From IMG/VR virus record IMGVR_UViG_3300037466_003456, positions 32,001 through 96,000 of that record: a stretch of DNA of 64,000 nucleotides. One strand, given 5' to 3'. This document shows, one piece after another, positions 13,939 to 24,376 of the stretch. Positions within the stretch are counted from its first letter, which is position 1, and each line of letters opens with the position of its first letter. The notes below the pieces were generated by a model. It was not told the origin of the DNA, did no database searches, and worked only from the letters and a program-made list of their open reading frames with translations. The DNA comes from a virus. The translations under genes were made by a program, and so were the position numbers.

Positions 13939-13954
13939 CATTATTCTTATAACA
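13939..13954 (-). promoter_or_regulatory. Early-type promoter motif (GTG replaced by ATG)
   Basis: TGTTATAAGAATAATG. Confidence 0.6.
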
Positions 13955-13988: not shown

Positions 13989-16900
13989 TTAAAACAGGAC
14001 TTCGGCTGTCTCCTTTTTATTTCCGTATTTCACAATTTCCGTTTGCTTGGTGATGAATTGTCGTACATTCAAGGTCCAACGATACCCATTGGTGTTTTTC
14101 TTGTATCCGAACTGACGGATTAATCCATCGTCATTTAAAGTCATGCGTGTTTCAATTCGATGTTTCTTTGTATCAAAACTCTTTCCTAAAACATTTTTCA
14201 TGGCAGTATGGATTTGCTTTAAATTGAAATCCTGAGTGGCGTCCATTTCTTCTGCCAGCACCTTCAAATGAACACTATCAATTTGAAAATTATCTCCCGA
14301 TACGTCAATCGGCTTATCATAAATATGGGAAGTATTTAACACCCAATGGCGTTTGGCATATCCTAAGATTTCTTCTGCAATTGTCACGAAGATATATTCC
14401 AACTTACCTTCTAAGGTGTTCATGGAAATTTCCTTCTTCATTTCCTTCACATTATTCTCGTAGAAAGACATCAAATACTTTTCATAATCGCCACCGCACA
14501 ACCGAGCGATGGTAACGAGAGGTCGTAGAATCTGCGTTAAACGGGCGTTCCCGGTTTCTAAACGTGTATCCGTTTCGAAGATTTGTTCAACATCCGAGAA
14601 ATAGGTCAAAGCGGAAATAGCGGCTCTGGAAGTGATGCTATAGGCTTCCCCTCGACGTTCCCCTTTAAACTTCTCTGGAGTGACCAATTTCTTTAAAACA
14701 GATTCAGGGGCTTGGTGGGTTTCAACATAAATACACCGGTCAGCGATAACATCGTCAACCCCGTTGATATTACTGATTACTTTAGGGCCAAACACTTTGT
14801 AATAGGTGGTAAATCCTGTGTCTGGATCCACACGACCAACTTCCCCTTTGTCGGAATACCCTGATTTTATGACTGCCGCAAGACCAGATTCGTTTACCTT
14901 CTTGGTATCCACTAAATACTCCAATTCATCGAGAATGAACGTGCCGCCGAATTGGTGGATCGAACGGAATAAAGCAGATTCTGTGATGTTAACCACAAAG
15001 GTTGGATTAAAACCTAACAGCTGAATAATTGCATCAAGAGTAGACTTCCCTGTACCCTTCGCCCCATTCAAAACAAGGTAAGGGAATCCACTTGAGAACA
15101 ATGTGTAAAAGTAGGTGGCGTAAATCCACAATGACAGTACCTTAATGACTTCATCGGTGCTGTAATAAATGTTGCGGATGAAGCTTTCGATTTCTTGAAT
15201 GATAATGCTGGGATGATAGGACATTTCATCGATTTCATCGTTAACCCATTTGTGAATCCACTCATACTGCAAGGAAAGATTCTCTACATCCCGCACATTA
15301 GTTTCCACTTCAGTCGGCAATTCGTATTTGTTATGAATGAGCAAAAGGCTTTGCGGAGTTTTCTTTTTAAGAAGATCCAGCCGAATCTCTTCTTTTTTGT
15401 TGCTGATGAGACACGGGACCATCTTAGGGGAATCATCATCCTTCACCATTTTCGCAAAGTACATATAGCCATCTCCTTTTTCCGGGAAAAAGGATTGAGC
15501 CAGTTGAATCTTTTGCGGTGCTCGAAGCAGGTCAACTTCCTCATTCTCATAGCCATTGACTTCTCGTAAAATCTCGGCCACATCAATGTCTGATTTAATT
15601 TTACGCTGGACTTGGCGAACCAGTAGCTCGTACTTCTTTGCAGGTGCGTGGAAAATGTACCAGGCAATCTGCTTAATGATTTCACTTTTAAACTTAGATA
15701 AATGGAAGATGTCGAGAAGTTCATCCATGGTGCGCTGTGGCTCATTTTCCACCCATCGGATGTCATGGTAATAGCTGTTGATTTCGTTGCTTAGAGCGAG
15801 TTTTAAGATGTTTTTATCGGGTGTCAGATTGATAGCCTCAATATCCTTTCCTACCCGTTTTTCATACATCAACTTTCCGTTGTAAAGCAACAAATCCCCG
15901 CTGAATGTGCGGTTTGGTTTCAAATAATCAATTTCATACCGAATGCCAACAAACCGATTTTTAATTTCCCAATGATGACGAGTACCATCACGCCAAATTT
16001 TGTATCCATCAGTTTCTTGTATCTTTGCCATATCAATGGAGTTCTTTAATATTTCAATGGCATTTTCATCGTTTTTCAAAAACTCATCGATATCCTTATA
16101 TTGTTCAGGAAACTCAAGGCTTTTCACCTTCACATCAGGGAGTTCATCGCTCAGCTGCTCTCTGTATTTGTCGCCAGCATCATCATGGTCAAATGCTTCG
16201 TAGATTTCATCAAACTGTCGAAGAAGATCGTTATCAAAAAATCCTTCTGGTGCATTACCACCGATTCCCCAAACCATGAAGTTTTTCTGATAAGAGGAAG
16301 GAAGTTCTAAAAATGCTTCTTTCGTAGATTGCTTGTCATTTTCTCCTTCGACTAATATCAGAGACTTTTTCTTTTTGGATTTTAACTCCTTGGGATGGGC
16401 GAAGAAAACTCCTTCCTTATCCCCACGACTTAAATTGTTAGGAGTCATGGTGTGCCCTGTCATATTCTCGTGGGCCGTCTTTAAGTAATCGTCAAGACTG
16501 TAATAATTTTGATTACAGTCATAGTGATAACCGCCATTCGGTTTCGCTTTACCTCGACAGGTACGGACGAAGATTTTACAGTTTACCCGAACCAAGTTTC
16601 CTTTTTCATCGCAGTAAGGATAGATAAAGTAACCCTCGGGCAACCCAACTAATGCCTGGGCACGGTTGATTTCAAATTCCTCATAGCCTTCTTCAAGTAA
16701 TTTCTTTTTCAATTCTGGCCAGCCACCGGTGTAACCTACTCGATCTTCAATCAAGGTTTCTGCTTTGTGCTTACGTTTTCTTGTTAAGTAATGAAGCGGC
16801 ACAATAATTTCCTCGGAGCCAGAGCTGTAATCCGTATAGGTTACGCTTCTTAACCGGGAATGGTAGTAATCGATGGCTCTTTGACAAATCCGTTGGAAGC

Positions 16901-17231
16901 GGGCATATTGTTCTCTTGCTGCTGATTGGGATGGTTCATGGCTGGCAAAGTTATATTTCTTTCCTGCCCACTCTCCAAGCCTTGTTCTGCCTTCAATTTC
17001 ACCAAGCTGATCTTCTACGATTTTAATAAGGGATCCACTAGCGTCACAAGAAAAACAATGACCTCCATTAAATCCCTTTGTCAGACTGAAACAGTTGTTA
17101 TGTCCGCAATAGGGACAGGGATTTACAAATATGGACTTTCCGGAAACTTCTATATTCGTAGACAAAAAGGTCCTGGCATAATCATCTAAGTTTCGTAGAA
17201 TATGTTCTGTAATGTCTTTAACCCAACTCAA
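13989..17231 (-). CDS. DNA primase (Zn finger + Toprim) fused to a C-terminal P-loop ATPase/helicase-like domain
   Basis: CPYCGHNNCF..CFSC zinc finger; Toprim LVEGEND, FDHDDAG, KDIDEFL; Walker A GAKGTGKST and Walker B FILDE. Confidence 0.85.
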   Translation of the reverse strand: MSWVKDITEHILRNLDDYARTFLSTNIEVSGKSIFVNPCPYCGHNNCFSLTKGFNGGHCFSCDASGSLIKIVEDQLGEIEGRTRLGEWAGKKYNFASHEPSQSAAREQYARFQRICQRAIDYYHSRLRSVTYTDYSSGSEEIIVPLHYLTRKRKHKAETLIEDRVGYTGGWPELKKKLLEEGYEEFEINRAQALVGLPEGYFIYPYCDEKGNLVRVNCKIFVRTCRGKAKPNGGYHYDCNQNYYSLDDYLKTAHENMTGHTMTPNNLSRGDKEGVFFAHPKELKSKKKKSLILVEGENDKQSTKEAFLELPSSYQKNFMVWGIGGNAPEGFFDNDLLRQFDEIYEAFDHDDAGDKYREQLSDELPDVKVKSLEFPEQYKDIDEFLKNDENAIEILKNSIDMAKIQETDGYKIWRDGTRHHWEIKNRFVGIRYEIDYLKPNRTFSGDLLLYNGKLMYEKRVGKDIEAINLTPDKNILKLALSNEINSYYHDIRWVENEPQRTMDELLDIFHLSKFKSEIIKQIAWYIFHAPAKKYELLVRQVQRKIKSDIDVAEILREVNGYENEEVDLLRAPQKIQLAQSFFPEKGDGYMYFAKMVKDDDSPKMVPCLISNKKEEIRLDLLKKKTPQSLLLIHNKYELPTEVETNVRDVENLSLQYEWIHKWVNDEIDEMSYHPSIIIQEIESFIRNIYYSTDEVIKVLSLWIYATYFYTLFSSGFPYLVLNGAKGTGKSTLDAIIQLLGFNPTFVVNITESALFRSIHQFGGTFILDELEYLVDTKKVNESGLAAVIKSGYSDKGEVGRVDPDTGFTTYYKVFGPKVISNINGVDDVIADRCIYVETHQAPESVLKKLVTPEKFKGERRGEAYSITSRAAISALTYFSDVEQIFETDTRLETGNARLTQILRPLVTIARLCGGDYEKYLMSFYENNVKEMKKEISMNTLEGKLEYIFVTIAEEILGYAKRHWVLNTSHIYDKPIDVSGDNFQIDSVHLKVLAEEMDATQDFNLKQIHTAMKNVLGKSFDTKKHRIETRMTLNDDGLIRQFGYKKNTNGYRWTLNVRQFITKQTEIVKYGNKKETAEVLF

Positions 17232-17270: not shown

Positions 17271-17981
17271 TTAAAAAGACTCGATCTCTCTCTGTATGGT
17301 CTTTTTCGGTAATGATAAAACGGCCTCTAGTCCTGTTACTAATTGCCTATTCGTAATACTAATTCTATCATGGAAAACAGCAATTGAAACAGTTTTACCG
17401 TTAGAAAATAATTTTAAGGCATGGAGGAAGGTATTGCTATTGACGGTTATAAACAACTCGTCCTTTTCAATCGAATGTCCTGTAGTAAACCCCATTTGTT
17501 CAACTCGAAAAATTTGGTTGTCATGCTTTTGAAAAAGAGCTGCCTCTAAGCGAGCGTTGTGTCTTTTTAATCTTAGCCAGGTTTGATCTCTTTCTCGTTT
17601 CTTTTTGATGGTCTCAAGGAACGTAATAAGACAATCACTCTGAATTTCTATTTCTCTTTCAGGCTCACCTGAAAAGATGAAGGTTAAATCTTTACGGGTT
17701 AATTCATTTTTAGTAAAAAGTGATTGATATTTGCTAGGTCGCTTTTTCATATTTTGATAGGGGAAGGTCACAATCACTTCGCCTTCATCCTCACTATTCG
17801 TAGGGATATAAAAAACAGGGGACGTGGGTTCCTCATGCTTCATCCGAACTGCATAGCTCGTTTCCACCATGTACCCATATTCTTCATCAAAATAAACGCC
17901 TGCCGTATGGTCATCACCTTTCCAATTTAAAAGTGGCCAATGCTGCCTAAGCAGCATCGCCACATCGTATCGCGTTACCAT
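17271..17981 (-). CDS. Hypothetical protein, weakly sliding-clamp-like (236 aa)
   Basis: Start lies inside the terminal motif of the last array gene; GVYFD..MVETSYAVR and ITVNSNTFLHALKLF patterns. Confidence 0.65.
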   Translation of the reverse strand: MVTRYDVAMLLRQHWPLLNWKGDDHTAGVYFDEEYGYMVETSYAVRMKHEEPTSPVFYIPTNSEDEGEVIVTFPYQNMKKRPSKYQSLFTKNELTRKDLTFIFSGEPEREIEIQSDCLITFLETIKKKRERDQTWLRLKRHNARLEAALFQKHDNQIFRVEQMGFTTGHSIEKDELFITVNSNTFLHALKLFSNGKTVSIAVFHDRISITNRQLVTGLEAVLSLPKKTIQREIESF

Positions 17982-18370
17982 ACTTTCCCCACTGGAGGAT
18001 TAATCAATCCGTTGTCTTTTTTCTTTTCATACTCGGAAAATCGATTTCTAAAAGAAAGATGGTTACGATGTAAATAATTGATTAAGTTTTCTAACGTGGA
18101 GTCCGCCTTATTCGTGCGTGACAAAACATCAAAAATCGCACCATGTTCTTCTGACATAACAGCTTTAAACATTTCATCTTCTTCACTACCCCAGCGAAAT
18201 GGATTGTTTTTAATTTCAAGGATGGCCTGACTTTTGCTGGTATGAAAAAAGAGTTCGTCAAAATAAGCAGGACCTGAATCACACAATCCTGAATAAATAT
18301 CCCACATCAATTGATTGTAGTGGGTATCTAGTATATGAGCCAGCTCTTGTTTTGCCTTTAAAGCATCCAT
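17975..18370 (-). CDS. GxVW-array paralog 12
   Basis: Ends LINPPVGKVW; start MDALKAK. Confidence 0.8.
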   Translation of the reverse strand: MDALKAKQELAHILDTHYNQLMWDIYSGLCDSGPAYFDELFFHTSKSQAILEIKNNPFRWGSEEDEMFKAVMSEEHGAIFDVLSRTNKADSTLENLINYLHRNHLSFRNRFSEYEKKKDNGLINPPVGKVW

Positions 18371-18375
18371 GTTCC

Positions 18376-18816
18376 TTACCACACCTTTCCAACGGGTATA
18401 TTTATATATCTTTTTAGAAAGCCATCGAGATAGGACATATTTTTATAATTTAATACTGTCATAATGTCTTGGTACAATAAATTCTCGTACAGACCATCCG
18501 AGTGGTCGCCTGATGCTTTCTTCATTTCATATTTATTTAGCTCACCATGTAAAAACAGAAATCGTTCCCGCTTTGACATCTTTTCGATTATGTCAAAAAG
18601 GTACCGTTCATTTAAATGCTTCTGTCCTAAGAGGGCAGAAAGGAAATATTCAGGTTTATCCCTGGTCAAATGCAGTAAAATGTTTTCAAGGACAGTTGGT
18701 AAACCTTTCCCGTTGTATCTCATGTACGTATCGACCACCTGATTTTCAAACTCTTTTTGAAATGCAGGTATAACGAAGTTTAAATGTAACGGTTCTATTT
18801 TGCTAACTTCATTCAT
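18376..18816 (-). CDS. GxVW-array paralog 11
   Basis: Ends YINIPVGKVW. Confidence 0.85.
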   Translation of the reverse strand: MNEVSKIEPLHLNFVIPAFQKEFENQVVDTYMRYNGKGLPTVLENILLHLTRDKPEYFLSALLGQKHLNERYLFDIIEKMSKRERFLFLHGELNKYEMKKASGDHSDGLYENLLYQDIMTVLNYKNMSYLDGFLKRYINIPVGKVW

Positions 18817-18822
18817 GCATTC

Positions 18823-19191
18823 TCACCATACGCTTCCTACAGGTATATTTCGGCAATCAATATAATGCCGTCTTGTTGGATGGATATCCTTTGCATAGAA
18901 CATGTGTTTAAATTCCAATAAAATCTGAACGTCCTTTCGAATTTCATCTGCGTCGGTAATACGGATTTTGTCTCCTTTATTTCCAAGAAGAACAGAAAGG
19001 TCACTATACGGATTGCCTGTTTCTAAATAATTGTGTCGATAAACAGAAAAATAACTTGCAGCATACGTAAGATCTTTAAGACCATGTACTCCTTCATCAA
19101 AATATGCCCCGAATACAAATTCCTCAAAATCCGATGCCAGCTCCTCTGGAATGAATTGTAGCTGTAACTTTCGTTTAACTAATCCATCCAT
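18823..19191 (-). CDS. GxVW-array paralog 10
   Basis: Ends CRNIPVGSVW. Confidence 0.85.
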   Translation of the reverse strand: MDGLVKRKLQLQFIPEELASDFEEFVFGAYFDEGVHGLKDLTYAASYFSVYRHNYLETGNPYSDLSVLLGNKGDKIRITDADEIRKDVQILLEFKHMFYAKDIHPTRRHYIDCRNIPVGSVW

Positions 19192-19194
19192 CCC

Positions 19195-19572
19195 TTACCA
19201 CACCTTTCCGACAGGGAAATTGATAAACTTTCTATTCTTGAAACTAACGCTCATATGATATTTAAAAATAACGCTAAACAAGTCTTTATCGTACGCCCTT
19301 GAATACTTTTCAACTGCATCGTCCTGCCACTTTAGAATATCTGGTAGTTTGAACCAAGCGAATCGATCTCCGAATTCCAGTAACGAAGCTACCTCACGAA
19401 ATGAATCTACTGATTGGTCATAGATGGTGCCTGCTAAAGGAATAAATTCTGGAATTCCCCACTTAGTCTGTGTATCTGCGACCTTTTCGTAAATATCAAA
19501 TACGTCCATTTCAAATTGACTTCGCGATTCCTCCGGAACTAAAAGAAATGGTTTTTGCTGAACTACTTGCAT
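19195..19572 (-). CDS. GxVW-array paralog 9
   Basis: Ends FINFPVGKVW; TAATG overlap start. Confidence 0.85.
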   Translation of the reverse strand: MQVVQQKPFLLVPEESRSQFEMDVFDIYEKVADTQTKWGIPEFIPLAGTIYDQSVDSFREVASLLEFGDRFAWFKLPDILKWQDDAVEKYSRAYDKDLFSVIFKYHMSVSFKNRKFINFPVGKVW

Positions 19573-19937
19573 TACCAAACCCTCCCGACTGGCAGATTGA
19601 TATATTTATCAAGTAAAAAAGAGTCATAAGACAAATTGTGAAAGTTAAGAACTGCCATTATGTCATTTATGAAATCATCTTCGTTCGCATCTTTGAACTC
19701 CGATAATTCATCAGCTGGATACGGGTTCGAAAAATAATGCTGATCCTCGAATATTTCCAATCTTGCTGTTTTATGCAAATAAGACAAGACACACCCGAAT
19801 ATGTGATGGTCGGTTGGAAGTTGGACAGGATTTTTCATTGCAATTTCAAAATAGGATTTTTCAACATCTCGAATAAAGGAATCTCGAAGCTGTTCAGGGA
19901 CAACAGTTAATTTAAGTTTTTCTCTTTTTGCTAACAT
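19572..19937 (-). CDS. GxVW-array paralog 8
   Basis: Ends YINLPVGRVW. Confidence 0.85.
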   Translation of the reverse strand: MLAKREKLKLTVVPEQLRDSFIRDVEKSYFEIAMKNPVQLPTDHHIFGCVLSYLHKTARLEIFEDQHYFSNPYPADELSEFKDANEDDFINDIMAVLNFHNLSYDSFLLDKYINLPVGRVW

Positions 19938-20336
19938 TTACCACACCTGCCCGATTGGATGATTGATAACGCGGTTATTGTGTGTATGAGACATGTTATA
20001 GTGAAGCAAAACTCTCCTAATATCATTTATAAAACCATCGGTATTATTTTCTTGGCAAATCCCAAAATCCAAAAATTCATTAGCATCCAGTTCATTCGGA
20101 GGACGCCACATTTTAAAAACTTCAAGTGAGCATAATTGTTCAAATAAATCATTTACTTCATACATGTTAATGTCTTCAGGTGTTAGAAAATATAGTTTAG
20201 TTTTTTTGAACAGATAACCTGCAGTATCAAACTGGACGTTTTCGTATCCTTCCTTTACCAGCTCAACGAATTTATCTGACATGTAATCTGGAACAACAGA
20301 AAACTTCGGATACCCATTAACAACTAATTGCTTCAT
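19938..20336 (-). CDS. GxVW-array paralog 7
   Basis: Ends VINHPIGQVW; TAATG overlap start. Confidence 0.85.
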   Translation of the reverse strand: MKQLVVNGYPKFSVVPDYMSDKFVELVKEGYENVQFDTAGYLFKKTKLYFLTPEDINMYEVNDLFEQLCSLEVFKMWRPPNELDANEFLDFGICQENNTDGFINDIRRVLLHYNMSHTHNNRVINHPIGQVW

Positions 20337-20737
20337 TACCACACCTGCCCTACAAAATGATTGACATGTTTTTTGGGATTTTCTGAATTGATATAACTTA
20401 AGTTCAAAAATCTTAGCAGCCGTTCAACATCTCTAAAAGCAAATTCATAATACGGATCGGTAATGGCATATTTTCTTGTGCGTTTTTCTTCGTTGTCTCC
20501 CATTCCTTTCAACACATCGGACCAATAATTGATATTCCTACCGTTGGTTTCCTGATGGGAAGCCACCTTCAGAATGACATCTCTTGTAGCATCTGTAAGA
20601 ACATGTAAATCTGGCAACTCTCCTGATTTATAACCATAATAGGTGTTGAATATAAGATTCATAAAATCAAACGAAAGATGGTCAGGCACCCAAGGGAATG
20701 CCTGACCACTGTAAATGATATCTGCTGTCAATCTCAT
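20336..20737 (-). CDS. GxVW-array paralog 6
   Basis: Ends HVNHFVGQVW; start MRLTAD. Confidence 0.85.
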   Translation of the reverse strand: MRLTADIIYSGQAFPWVPDHLSFDFMNLIFNTYYGYKSGELPDLHVLTDATRDVILKVASHQETNGRNINYWSDVLKGMGDNEEKRTRKYAITDPYYEFAFRDVERLLRFLNLSYINSENPKKHVNHFVGQVW

Positions 20738-20738
20738 C

Positions 20739-21215
20739 TCACCATACCTTTCCAACAGGGAAATTGCGAAATACTGGATTGACGGAAAAGCCATGAATGG
20801 AATAGGATTCCTGGAAGAACATTTTGTTGTGATACAAATACCTTTTCATATCCTCAATAAATCGCAGTTCAATCACCGTTTCATTCTTTTCCAAGAATTT
20901 TCGTGATTGTTCCCAATGGTGGTCATCCTGATATACCCAATTGTGAGGAAATTGATTGGGATCGAATTTAACATTTGCTTCTTTTAAATAATGGTGATTA
21001 TAGATATCCGTGTAATGATCAAGCAGAATGTCTCTTGTAAGTTCGTCCTTAAACATCATATTATTTGTAATTAAAGGAACGAGGTCTTCTGGGCATCTGT
21101 CAGTTGCAGCTAATTCTATATACCAATCTTCCATGTAGCTCTCGAATAATTTTGTCGCTACCTCTGGAACCCACTGATAATTGACCGTTTGTTTCGCTAA
21201 TTGATTACTTTTCAT
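20739..21215 (-). CDS. GxVW-array paralog 5
   Basis: Ends FRNFPVGKVW; TAATG overlap start. Confidence 0.85.
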   Translation of the reverse strand: MKSNQLAKQTVNYQWVPEVATKLFESYMEDWYIELAATDRCPEDLVPLITNNMMFKDELTRDILLDHYTDIYNHHYLKEANVKFDPNQFPHNWVYQDDHHWEQSRKFLEKNETVIELRFIEDMKRYLYHNKMFFQESYSIHGFSVNPVFRNFPVGKVW

Positions 21216-21580
21216 TACCACACCTCACCAGAAAAATGATTGAAATACCTTGTACGAGGATGAGCGTCATCCGTATAGCAATAAAATAGGTGATACGCAT
21301 TTAATACAGAGACCACATCTTCATATGCCTCAACAGAATCCCTATGTTTTCCGAAATGAGCAAAGACATCAATTCCTGTAAACCCAGGATGTTCCTTCAT
21401 TCTGAATAAATTAGGCGGATGTTGGTTTCCATGTAAAATATTTGATTTAATCAAATCCTTTTGATACCACTCGAGCACATCAAATACAAACCATTCAAAT
21501 TGATGTTGATTACCTTGAATTAATTTCATTTGTTCCCGCAATTTTTTTACTCCAGAAACCGTCAGGGCTCCGTTCACCAT
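21215..21580 (-). CDS. GxVW-array paralog 4
   Basis: Ends YFNHFSGEVW; start MVNGAL. Confidence 0.8.
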   Translation of the reverse strand: MVNGALTVSGVKKLREQMKLIQGNQHQFEWFVFDVLEWYQKDLIKSNILHGNQHPPNLFRMKEHPGFTGIDVFAHFGKHRDSVEAYEDVVSVLNAYHLFYCYTDDAHPRTRYFNHFSGEVW

Positions 21581-21972
21581 ATCCCACCTCCATAGGGACA
21601 ATTAATGACTTTTTTACGATCTGCCCCTGTGTAAGACATGTATCTTGTTCTCAAATAATTAAGGACAATGGAATCCGTTTCGCTTTTTTGCATTTCCTGA
21701 AAGGTAAACTCGGAAATGCCTCCCATCGCCGCTTTCGAATGGAATACATGAGGGGCGTATCCATATTTTAGATGGATCCCTGCCGCAACCATTTCATTGA
21801 CCTTTTCTGAACGGGCTTTAAGATTTATTTCATCATGACATCTCTCTAATAATTCACCGATAAACGGGAAACCGGGAGATTTTAAGTTATATGAGTTGTT
21901 CACCAAATGGGCGTAAGTTTGCCATATCTGGTCTTCGTATGGAAAAATCACATACTTTTCAAGTTGGTTCAT
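21574..21972 (-). CDS. GxVW-array paralog 3
   Basis: Ends VINCPYGGGIW. Confidence 0.8.
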   Translation of the reverse strand: MNQLEKYVIFPYEDQIWQTYAHLVNNSYNLKSPGFPFIGELLERCHDEINLKARSEKVNEMVAAGIHLKYGYAPHVFHSKAAMGGISEFTFQEMQKSETDSIVLNYLRTRYMSYTGADRKKVINCPYGGGIW

Positions 21973-22245
21973 TTACCACACCTCTCCTATAGGGAAATTG
22001 ATATAACCGTCACGAAATCTCAAGAAGATATGATGGTCTTGGCAGCATCTAATAACTGAAAACGCGACTTCTTCAAAAGGTTTATCACTTAATATCTTCA
22101 CAGTGACGTCGTTTAGACTTGGAATGAAACCTACTTCTTGTAACAAAAAAGGAGGAGCATGATACGACATCTCTATTACCTCATCGTAATAGGCGTCCAT
22201 CACTTTATTTAAAAACACTTGGTCTTTTCTTTGAATAATATTCAT
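21973..22245 (-). CDS. GxVW-array paralog 2
   Basis: Ends YINFPIGEVW; TAATG overlap start MNIIQR. Confidence 0.8.
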   Translation of the reverse strand: MNIIQRKDQVFLNKVMDAYYDEVIEMSYHAPPFLLQEVGFIPSLNDVTVKILSDKPFEEVAFSVIRCCQDHHIFLRFRDGYINFPIGEVW

Positions 22246-22640
22246 TACCACACCTTCCCTACAGGCATATTGATGTAAGGGTCTTTTATTTTCCATAGTT
22301 CAATAAACTCTTTGCTTTTTATCACAAAAGAATAACCTTGACTTACAAGCTCGTCATAGATGACGGCTTCACCCTTAATAGGAGAATTCTTTATTGTGCT
22401 AACTAAGTGATTAAATTCATCTAGAGATAAATCTTTGCTTTTTAATTGCTCCGTTGCCCGAGTCAATAAATTAAGCATTTTCTGGGTGTATTCATTTTCC
22501 TTATCCAGATTGTGCATCATGTGGTGCATATAGATATTTTCAAAAGTTGGCAAAAAAATAGTATTAGAAGCAGAGGATCGATATGCTTCAAACATATCGA
22601 TCCTCTTAACTGCTGACAAAGAAAAGGTTTCGTTGCTCAC
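22245..22640 (-). CDS. GxVW-array paralog 1
   Basis: Ends YINMPVGKVW; probable GTG start overlapping the upstream TGA. Confidence 0.8.
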   Translation of the reverse strand: MSNETFSLSAVKRIDMFEAYRSSASNTIFLPTFENIYMHHMMHNLDKENEYTQKMLNLLTRATEQLKSKDLSLDEFNHLVSTIKNSPIKGEAVIYDELVSQGYSFVIKSKEFIELWKIKDPYINMPVGKVW

Positions 22641-23731
22641 GGTATCCAAATCCTTCCACGTATATGTTGGTAAGTCGGTGCTATTGCTGCTTCAATCGTA
22701 GGATGTTCATTATGTCCTTCCGCATAAAAATAACCCCCGCTATAGGCATCAGCGAATTGCATCGAGATACGAGGATATCCTTTTAATGTGTTCATTAAGG
22801 CAGAGAAAAGATCTAAGTCAAATGTAAGCATCGGAGCACCTTGAATCCACTTGTCGTTATAATCAGGCATAAATGGATGGTCCATAATATATTTCACGTT
22901 ATTAGTATCACTTTTATTCACCTCATAAGAACCATGACCAGCACGAAGCATACCGCGATCAAAATGCTGAACGGCAATCCGAATACCAGTCTTTAAGGGT
23001 TGCAGCACGTTGCAAGTTTTAACGCCAGCTTGCTTATCTTCGTTCATTGGTCTGATCAAATACACCAATCCCGGACGAATTCTTTCGGCATTAATGATGG
23101 AGTCCTTATCAACAAAACTCTTGACGGTATACAATTTTCCTTTAAATTCAAATTCAGAAACCATGATGATTTCGTTATTTGGTTGTTTCTCAGCCATCGC
23201 GGCTAAATGTCCGACTGGAACTCCAGCTGTAAATTGGATATTAATCTTCCTGTCTTGGTATTGCGGAGAACTTTGAAAACCTGTGAAATGATCATTAACA
23301 AATTCATGGATATCATTCGGACTTAAATCAACATTAAACTTTAACGCTGTTTTCTCCTTCATGGCGTTAATGTAATCAATCGCTTCCTTAGTACGGATTC
23401 TTTCCCGTTCTTTTCCGTCGTTTACATCGTCCCCTAGAATTCCTTCAGTGTCTGCGGTAGTTGTGTCATAGGTCTCTTTTCTATAATGATAGAGGCCGTT
23501 TTCATGCATAATTCCTCTCGGACCGACTCCTAGATCCACTTCTGCTCCTCTTGCATACTGGGCCCTGAAAAACATTACACCTCGATTGGAAACAACTCTT
23601 CTTACTCCACCCACTATACTTCCGTTTTCAACGTCAAAAAACATATACTGATTGTCGCTATCGCGATTCAAAGTAACGATTGGATAAAATAAAGGAATCG
23701 CATGCCCCATTTGTCTTGCTACAGTTTCCAT
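22637..23731 (-). CDS. Hypothetical protein (364 aa), possibly sliding-clamp-like
   Basis: Length is close to a beta clamp; the C-terminus LTFDLDLFSALMNTLKGYPRISMQFADAYSGGYFY...AAIAP recalls clamp domain III. Confidence 0.7.
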   Translation of the reverse strand: METVARQMGHAIPLFYPIVTLNRDSDNQYMFFDVENGSIVGGVRRVVSNRGVMFFRAQYARGAEVDLGVGPRGIMHENGLYHYRKETYDTTTADTEGILGDDVNDGKERERIRTKEAIDYINAMKEKTALKFNVDLSPNDIHEFVNDHFTGFQSSPQYQDRKINIQFTAGVPVGHLAAMAEKQPNNEIIMVSEFEFKGKLYTVKSFVDKDSIINAERIRPGLVYLIRPMNEDKQAGVKTCNVLQPLKTGIRIAVQHFDRGMLRAGHGSYEVNKSDTNNVKYIMDHPFMPDYNDKWIQGAPMLTFDLDLFSALMNTLKGYPRISMQFADAYSGGYFYAEGHNEHPTIEAAIAPTYQHIRGRIWIP

Positions 23732-23797: not shown

Positions 23798-24319
23798 TTA
23801 CTTCTTTTCTTCAACTGTTTCTGTTGCGTTGATTACTGCTTCTGCTTCTGCATTAAGCTCTTTTCCTTTTAATGCTGCTGATAAATTGCTGAATTTTTCT
23901 AATTCATCGTTCCATTTTTTCTTGGTCTTCTTTGTCACTAATTTTGTTTCATCAATCATGCGTTTTAATTCTATTTGTAAATCTAATGGGTTTTTCATTG
24001 TTTTATTTGCTAAATCAATTTCTTCTTTATTCCATTTCATCTTTGTATCAGTTGGGTTTTGATCCATATGTGTTGCGATTGCATTCACTTTCGCTAATAG
24101 TTCAAAATACTTTTTTGCTTCCCGTTTTTCCTTAATCCATAATCCACCGAATATGCCGCCTGTTACTGCTGCGCCTGCTCCTGCTCCGATTACTAATCCT
24201 TTTACAAAATCATTACTCTTACTTTCAATTACTTCTACATCTTCAAAACTTCTAAAACCTCCAAAATTTTCATCATATACATTTTCCATTTCTGCTGCTT
24301 GTTCTGCCATTTGTACCAT
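23798..24319 (-). CDS. Membrane protein with Gly/Ala-rich TM and coiled C-terminus (173 aa)
   Basis: LVIGAGAGAAVTGGIFGGLW; AAGGAG SD; promoter motif upstream. Confidence 0.75.
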   Translation of the reverse strand: MVQMAEQAAEMENVYDENFGGFRSFEDVEVIESKSNDFVKGLVIGAGAGAAVTGGIFGGLWIKEKREAKKYFELLAKVNAIATHMDQNPTDTKMKWNKEEIDLANKTMKNPLDLQIELKRMIDETKLVTKKTKKKWNDELEKFSNLSAALKGKELNAEAEAVINATETVEEKK

Positions 24320-24360: not shown

Positions 24361-24376
24361 CACTGTCCTTATAACA
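24361..24376 (-). promoter_or_regulatory. Early-type promoter motif
   Basis: TGTTATAAGGACAGTG. Confidence 0.7.

Follow-up and report, generated by a model that had tools for sequence, protein, structure and literature searches.

A fixed array of twelve V-W-tailed paralogs between two genes for clamp-like proteins in an uncultured soil phage: possible clients of a clamp-like hub

Why would a phage keep a dozen small paralogous genes back to back on one strand, nearly all of them closing on the same few residues? The question is raised by a stretch of 64,000 nucleotides (bases 32001-96000 of virus record G000, hereafter the window) from an uncultured soil phage, whose record of 121,681 bases is about 80% complete. 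On the minus strand of the window, from 17975 to 22649, lie 12 consecutive open reading frames (ORFs) which, with likely start codons, code for proteins of 90-158 amino acids (aa) and are here called the VW array (members 1-12, Table 1). The original prediction, made from the sequence alone, had placed this run at 17975-22640, of which the start holds while the upper end is found at 22649, and had read it as an expandable set of interchangeable subunits with conserved docking ends and variable cores directed at host targets, e.g., in anti-defence. We find that the array is an ancient and fixed set of genes whose common tail appears to be selected as protein, and that it lies inside a conserved replication operon between two genes for clamp-like proteins, an arrangement that tentatively suggests adaptors docked on a clamp-like hub.

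The tandem set of 12 paralogs with a common ending was confirmed by the ORFs, by a family profile and by a count of endings. The C-terminal pattern N-x-[PF]-[VISY]-G-x-[VI]-W-stop, predicted for all 12 members, is exact in 11 of them, whereas member 3 carries one extra Gly (N-C-P-Y-G-G-G-I-W). Six of the 12 members match [VI]-P-x6-F-x3-[VIM]-x3-Y exactly at the N-terminus, in line with the prediction, and eight rather than the nine expected match D-x3-[VLY][LI]-x3-[NHK][LM][SF] exactly, with near matches in others. Across the 535 ORFs of the whole record (stop to stop, 60 aa or longer), exactly 13 end in G-x-[VI]-W, namely the 12 of the array plus a lone copy located beyond the window; a shared ending of this kind lies far beyond chance, and the array is real. 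Furthermore, a profile made from the 12 array members scores each of them at E values between 1e-14 and 3e-37, with pairwise identities among them of 17-33%.

That the proteins belong to no recognised family was borne out by the database scans, in which ten members gave nothing below E 0.02 against Pfam and no match at E<=0.01 against PHROGs v4, all 12 members gave only single chance-level hits against NCBIfam 20, and the family profile found nothing below E 0.08 among the sequences of the PDB. The same profile, run against 1.84 billion representative proteins, retrieved 46 clusters at E<=1e-3, all 46 of which end in V-W; within the family, Y29 and the terminal Trp never vary, and F21, N114 and V120 almost never do. 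Neither megablast of the region nor tblastn of member 5 and of the 364-aa protein encoded upstream of the array gave a match among 50,697 phage records, and no relatives appeared when IMG/VR and the GTDB species genomes were scanned with the 236-aa protein encoded downstream of the array or with an alignment of the 364-aa protein. A literature search found no description of the VW family or of its gene layout.

Array genes overlap stop to start, at junctions such as TGGTAATG, TGGTGATG or GTATGGTAA. The C-terminal motif might thus merely reflect the ribosome-binding site and start codon that the following gene requires, and do nothing in the protein. Among 72 members from seven contigs, purines dominate the codons at -4 (GGN or AAR) and -3 (NAG or NGG), which give a GGAGG-like Shine-Dalgarno site 7 nucleotides before the next ATG. 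No particular residue is kept at -3 (E 28, R 12, Q 9, K 8 and G 7 of the 72), yet its codon keeps -AG or -GG, and GTG is enriched among the codons of Val -2 (47% vs 25% genome-wide). At codon level, the G-x of G-x-V-W therefore reads as largely a translation signal, the Shine-Dalgarno sequence of the next gene, and to that extent the view of G-x-V-W as a protein signal has to be given up. V-W itself is not explained in this way. The spacer bases of a ribosome-binding site need no conservation, yet the last residue is Trp and the second to last Val or Ile in 72 out of 72 members, with all four Val codons in use; the N and P further upstream are kept with free third codon positions, and V-W is retained where the Shine-Dalgarno site of the next gene sits past the stop codon (L011 6121-6495, L010 2480-2878 and L014 4430-4888). 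Together, the invariant Trp, the free Val codons, the third positions of N and P and the persistence of V-W at such junctions argue that N-x-P-φ-x-x-V-W is selected as protein, while the same bases would also couple translation along the array. As sole explanation of the motif, a pure ribosome-binding-site artefact is largely refuted by this codon-level evidence, and we consider it extremely improbable.

The phage is present in soil and rhizosphere metagenomes, with 11 DNA sequencing runs and no RNA run among those listed, and contigs from four runs, compared with the array region, are near-identical copies without deletion or rearrangement joints. Further metagenome contigs with members all show arrays, with 12 members each in L011, L012 and L013, 13 in L016, at least 11 in L014, at least eight in L010 and at least three in L009. 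In L011 and L012, every member has a 1:1 ortholog in the same position, with diagonal identities of 34-53% (L011) and 35-81% (L012) and off-diagonal identities of 13-35%; in L016, which is more distant, one can still recognise the order 1, (extra), 2, 3, 4, 5, 6, (7), 8, (9), 10, 11, 12. In a quick maximum-likelihood tree of 50 members, the proteins of four phages group by array position, with a separate clade for each position (SH-aLRT, an approximate likelihood-ratio branch support, 82-99). Within orthogroups, the last eight residues are the most conserved part (identity 0.69), followed by the C-terminal 38 residues (0.59), the core (0.48) and the N-terminal segment (0.46). The collinear 1:1 orthologs, the position-wise clades and the conserved cores show that the array is an ancient, fixed set of twelve non-redundant genes and not a fast-expanding or diversifying one, and the last two of these features also indicate twelve distinct functions behind one common tail.

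These results change the picture from which the analysis started. An expandable and interchangeable set is not supported, given the 1:1 orthologs in the same order in related phages, and the supposedly variable cores are, between orthologs, as conserved as the N-terminal segment. Likewise, nothing points to host targets or anti-defence: the array is situated within a conserved replication operon, and the hallmarks of an accessory island are absent, given that the array is collinear with 1:1 orthologs in L011, L012, L013 and L016 and that the block holds no helix-turn-helix (HTH) gene. What survives of the idea of a common docking end with different specificities is the shared extreme C-terminal peptide on paralog-specific bodies. 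A separate observation concerns member 7, which is 35% identical to its L012 counterpart (54-81% for the other L012 members) and 51% identical to its counterpart in the more distant L011; the pattern suggests exchange or accelerated change at this one position.

To what kind of body is the tail attached? An AlphaFold2 model of member 8, based on a 55-sequence alignment, reached a mean confidence (pLDDT) of 92.6 and a predicted template-modelling score (pTM) of 0.84. It consists of helices at residues 15-35 (with F21 and Y29), 43-49, 51-63 and 75-99 (with D-x3-VL), a β-hairpin at 104-113 and then the tail, the helices within 43-63 being the paralog-variable part. Confidence falls towards the end, with a mean pLDDT of 86 for residues 111-120 and 47 at the last residue, as expected for a flexible terminal peptide, and only the last ~8 residues look free in the model. 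Of the conserved ends taken for docking parts, most would accordingly belong to the core of the fold (two long helices and the hairpin), and only these last ~8 residues would form a tail. Foldseek returned no match for the model at E<=0.001 in PDB and BFVD, and VIA-align against 48,161 chains gave a best Z of 5.5, which is noise; several winged-helix chains among its matches (Z 3.9-4.8) also lie within the noise range. The predicted fold, which combines a pair of long conserved helices with a variable helical insert and a β-hairpin, thus appears to be new. VW members are unlikely to bind DNA themselves because they are mostly acidic, with isoelectric points of 4.6-7.0.

The model also bears on whether a common partner has to be assumed at all. 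The conserved ends might be nothing else than the core of one fold put to use in twelve unrelated functions (anti-defence or host takeover, for instance), with V-W packed on the protein's own core for stability; F21, Y29 and D-x3-VL do sit in two long helices of a confident model, and phages often carry families of small accessory paralogs. We nevertheless hold this to be unlikely, as throughout the lineage the array is collinear and belongs to the core, unlike a variable accessory island, and the most conserved residue of the family is its very last, where the confidence of the model is lowest.

A fixed set built on one scaffold could instead be a single machine, the alternative named in the original prediction, in which the twelve or thirteen paralogs are subunits of one hetero-oligomer, the V-W tail of each latching onto a neighbouring subunit and the conserved helices forming the common interface. 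The member number and order fixed across phages would fit such a complex, as would the one scaffold common to all members and the stop-start overlaps along the whole array, which favour equimolar synthesis. Such overlaps are, however, widespread in phage operons whose proteins are unrelated, the array counts 13 members in L016 and at least 11 in L014, with diverged later positions, and one copy stands apart from the array beside a sigma factor. Overall, we give a hetero-oligomer a low, though appreciable, probability.

The neighbours of the array point in another direction. Upstream, the gene for the 364-aa protein yielded an AlphaFold2 model with a pLDDT of 70, for which Foldseek found 87 matches at E<=1e-3, all sliding clamps among the matches listed. 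VIA-align superposed it on bacterial DnaN with a Z of 13.9 and a root-mean-square deviation of 4.0 Å over 195 aligned residues that span model residues 2-355, and about 500 clamp chains reached Z>=8; the domain arrangement of the model is imperfect (global TM score ~0.2). According to this model, the 364-aa protein has the β-clamp fold with its three repeated domains of β-α-β-β-β topology. At sequence level it had no Pfam or PHROG match at E<=1e-3, including to DNA_pol3_beta (PF00712, PF02767 and PF02768). The protein ends in a disordered tail, R-G-R-I-W-x-P, which shows no variation among seven orthologs and recalls the G-[KR]-V-W of the array members. Downstream, the 236-aa protein has an ESM Atlas model of its exact sequence (pTM 0.74) that aligns to clusters of β-clamps and PCNA with TM scores of 0.64-0.68, and it is probably a two-domain sliding clamp of the PCNA/gp45 type. 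Sequence-level support for a clamp was absent here, and ortholog scans against Pfam and PHROGs gave weak hits with nothing clamp-related among them; hhalign found no relationship between the 236-aa and 364-aa families, nor between the VW and 364-aa families. The order of 173-aa gene, 364-aa gene, array, 236-aa gene and primase gene is syntenic in L011, L012, L013 and L016, in which orthologs are only ~43-60% identical.

A common exposed C-terminal peptide of hydrophobic-aromatic character on many different bodies is a textbook sign of clients of a common hub. Among readers of such tails, sliding clamps are known best, and binding of short hydrophobic peptides at C-termini is common to clamps of every kind. 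Because twelve tail-sharing proteins lie between two clamp-fold genes, one of which encodes a look-alike tail, we favour a reading in which the V-W tail is a docking peptide by which all the paralogs would be tethered to a single shared hub, with one or other of the flanking clamp-like proteins as the most probable candidate, while the paralog-specific bodies would each hold a different partner or bring a different activity. The whole would amount to a phage-private clamp 'tool belt', comparable to the C-terminal tails of T4 gp43, gp33 and gp55 on gp45. Two features of clamp clients are present: all 72 members carry a short, conserved, hydrophobic/aromatic terminal peptide outside the folded body, and a candidate cognate clamp is available in the 364-aa protein (DnaN fold) and the 236-aa protein (clamp-like by Atlas match). 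We infer both the docking of the tail and the clamp as its hub from sequence, fold and synteny, and we regard hub-docked VW adaptors as quite possible, somewhat short of an even chance.

Several points weigh against a clamp as the hub. The tail matches no known clamp-binding consensus (QL[SD]LF, QLxLxL, QxxLxxFF or the acidic-hydrophobic T4 type), as it has no Gln and differs in spacing and last residue. The assignment of the 236-aa protein comes from a structure-atlas match only, and with neither a polymerase nor a clamp loader recognised in the ~80% complete record, the clamp-fold proteins may not be replicative clamps. In addition, the lone 13th copy adjoins a sigma factor and not a clamp, gene neighbourhood alone is weak evidence for binding, and the tight stop-start overlaps and the fixed member number would also fit a stoichiometric complex.

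Comparison with known systems places the favoured adaptors most closely beside the clamp clients of T4, with which the VW set shares unrelated or diverged bodies that all end in one short hydrophobic peptide, the presence of a clamp encoded by the phage, and small acidic helical proteins. In T4, the tails of gp43, gp55 and gp33 bind gp45 and are interchangeable, and gp33, which is small (112 aa), acidic and helical, links RNA polymerase to the clamp (PMC2988020). Unlike the T4 tails, the VW motif N-x-P-φ-x-x-V-W is not acidic-hydrophobic, and its presumed docking would be that of 12-13 paralogs of one new predicted fold, encoded in tandem between two clamp-fold genes that differ from each other. 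The bacterial β-clamp DnaN offers a second likeness, in the fold of the 364-aa protein (Z 13.9), in clients that would dock via a terminal peptide ending in an aromatic residue, and in the tail E-[VS]-L-F of the neighbouring primase, which is near the classical ...SLF end. In contrast to DnaN clients (QL[SD]LF), the VW tail lacks Gln and the L-x-L-F spacing; moreover, the 364-aa protein has no sequence similarity to DnaN, and neither a clamp loader nor a polymerase was recognised in the ~80% complete record. Finally, the SSB tail (…DDDIPF-COOH) and the terminal-Phe tails of T7 gp2.5 and gp4 likewise provide an aromatic docking point at the extreme C-terminus within a replication module; there, however, the tail of one protein is read by many partners, whereas in the VW set many proteins share one non-acidic tail.

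The lone 13th copy opens the question of a different hub. Its stop codon overlaps (TGGTAATG) the start of a gene for a sigma-70-type factor, and the phage encodes its own fused β-β' RNA polymerase, so that the common partner might be the transcription machinery (β-β' RNA polymerase or sigma), the primase, or a host hub such as DnaN, the partners of SSB or a protease or chaperone that reads C-termini, with the members acting as regulators of transcription or replication or as factors for host takeover. T4 gp33, bridging RNA polymerase and clamp, sets a precedent (PMC2988020), and a DnaJ homologue occurs in the same strand block in relatives. On the other hand, 12 of the 13 copies lie between clamp-fold genes and not beside transcription genes, and no similarity of sequence or fold to gp33, sigma or anti-sigma proteins was found; we assign a hub of this kind a low, though appreciable, probability. 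The clamp-hub reading can also be extended to include the lone copy, such that, in this lineage of large soil phages, the two clamp-fold proteins would carry 12-13 VW adaptors, one of them sigma-paired, and the adaptors would link DNA replication with other DNA transactions and with the transcription carried out by the β-β' RNA polymerase. This would be a far more elaborate arrangement than gp45-gp33-gp55, with a new motif and a new fold, and at present it seems doubtful.

The family and its predicted fold are new, while a clamp or hub with tail-docked clients is of a known kind. If V-W does dock on a phage clamp-fold hub, it would represent a new clamp-binding motif together with a new protein fold and, to our knowledge, the first case of a phage that maintains twelve or so clients dedicated to its own clamp-like proteins, each of them conserved individually. 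It would also offer a concrete way into a 'dark matter' gene block that recurs in large uncultured soil phages, and peptide-pocket pairs of this kind could be useful as orthogonal tethering tools. Even with another hub, a set of 12 collinear paralogs that share an invariant Trp as last residue would be an unusually clean experimental target.

Table 1 Members of the VW array and other features of the phage (positions refer to the window unless another locus or record is named; aa, amino acids).
Feature	Position	Strand	Remarks
VW member 1, 116 aa from ATG	22245..22595	-	ends NMPVGKVW; TTG at 22649 possible
VW member 2, 90 aa from TAATG-overlapping ATG	21973..22245	-	ends NFPIGEVW
VW member 3, 132 aa	21574..21972	-	ends NCPYGGGIW
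VW member 4, 121 aa	21215..21580	-	ends NHFSGEVW
VW member 5, 158 aa	20739..21215	-	ends NFPVGKVW
VW member 6, 133 aa	20336..20737	-	ends NHFVGQVW
VW member 7, 132 aa	19938..20336	-	ends NHPIGQVW
VW member 8, 121 aa (modelled member)	19572..19937	-	ends NLPVGRVW
VW member 9, 125 aa	19195..19572	-	ends NFPVGKVW
VW member 10, 122 aa	18823..19191	-	ends NIPVGSVW
VW member 11, 146 aa	18376..18816	-	ends NIPVGKVW
VW member 12, 131 aa	17975..18370	-	ends NPPVGKVW; ATG of the following gene falls within the V-W-stop codons (GTATGGTAA)
364-aa protein, predicted β-sliding-clamp fold (DnaN-like), upstream of array	22637..23731	-	AlphaFold2 and structure search; ATG at 23731 conserved
236-aa protein, probable clamp, downstream of array	17271..17981	-	ESM Atlas match; ATG inside the V-W-stop codons of member 12
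1080-aa zinc-finger/Toprim primase-type protein	13989..17231	-	phrog_239, Toprim_2
173-aa protein at the head of the block, with one hydrophobic, transmembrane-like segment rich in Gly/Ala	23798..24319	-	syntenic in L011, L012, L013 and L016
Promoter-like motif TGTTATAAG-N4-GTG upstream of operon	24361..24376	-	next same-strand copy at 13939-13954, none between
Lone 13th VW copy, 126 aa, isoelectric point 4.6	L019:7537-7917 = G000:C1:103537-103917	-	ends NLPVGRVW; outside the window
Sigma-70-type factor, 196 aa	L019:6953-7543		Sigma70_r2 4.6e-8; phrog_351 2.3e-15
D5-like HTH regulator after sigma factor	L019:6021-6953
Fused RNA polymerase β-β', single chain, 2241 aa	53028-59753	+	Rpb2 domain 6 E 4.8e-71; Rpb1 domains 1-5
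AimR, then 59-aa secreted pro-peptide (AimP)	L019:11800-11990 and L019:12021-13163	-	PF22871, E 8.8e-50; pro-peptide ends ...TTYGDPGGW

Some features of the wider phage genome deserve mention. The acidic C-terminal tail of the primase-type protein, E-[VS]-L-F-COOH, is conserved in four orthologs and would be a second, more classical-looking docking tail in the operon. Despite the two clamp-fold genes, the primase, two helicases and SbcCD-like genes, a search of the phage's own genome, in a record that is ~80% complete, recognised neither DNA polymerases of families A, B and C nor a clamp loader (δ' family); these genes may lie in the missing part of the record or be too diverged to detect. The gene for the β-β' RNA polymerase is located at the end of the plus-strand late block. 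Furthermore, besides its own RNA polymerase the phage encodes, with AimR and AimP, a communication pair of the arbitrium type. The arbitrium pro-peptide ends in Trp like the VW family, which is probably a coincidence, and a likeness between its end (…GDPGGW) and the VW tail was considered and judged too weak.

Regarding signals in the DNA around and within the operon, a perfect-looking 14-bp hairpin with seven G-C pairs lies at 20678-20709 on the minus strand, within the coding sequence of member 6 and across the conserved F-P-W-V-P-D segment; it was scored as terminator-like, but its T-run is poor. Another terminator-like hairpin follows the 173-aa gene at 23792-23769. The motif TGTTAYAAG-N4-GTG, one copy of which lies upstream of the operon, has 11 matches in the window (5447-60349, minus strand), where 0.5 would be expected by chance, and all 11 copies precede minus-strand gene blocks; judged by sequence, it is a candidate promoter of early or middle genes of the phage.

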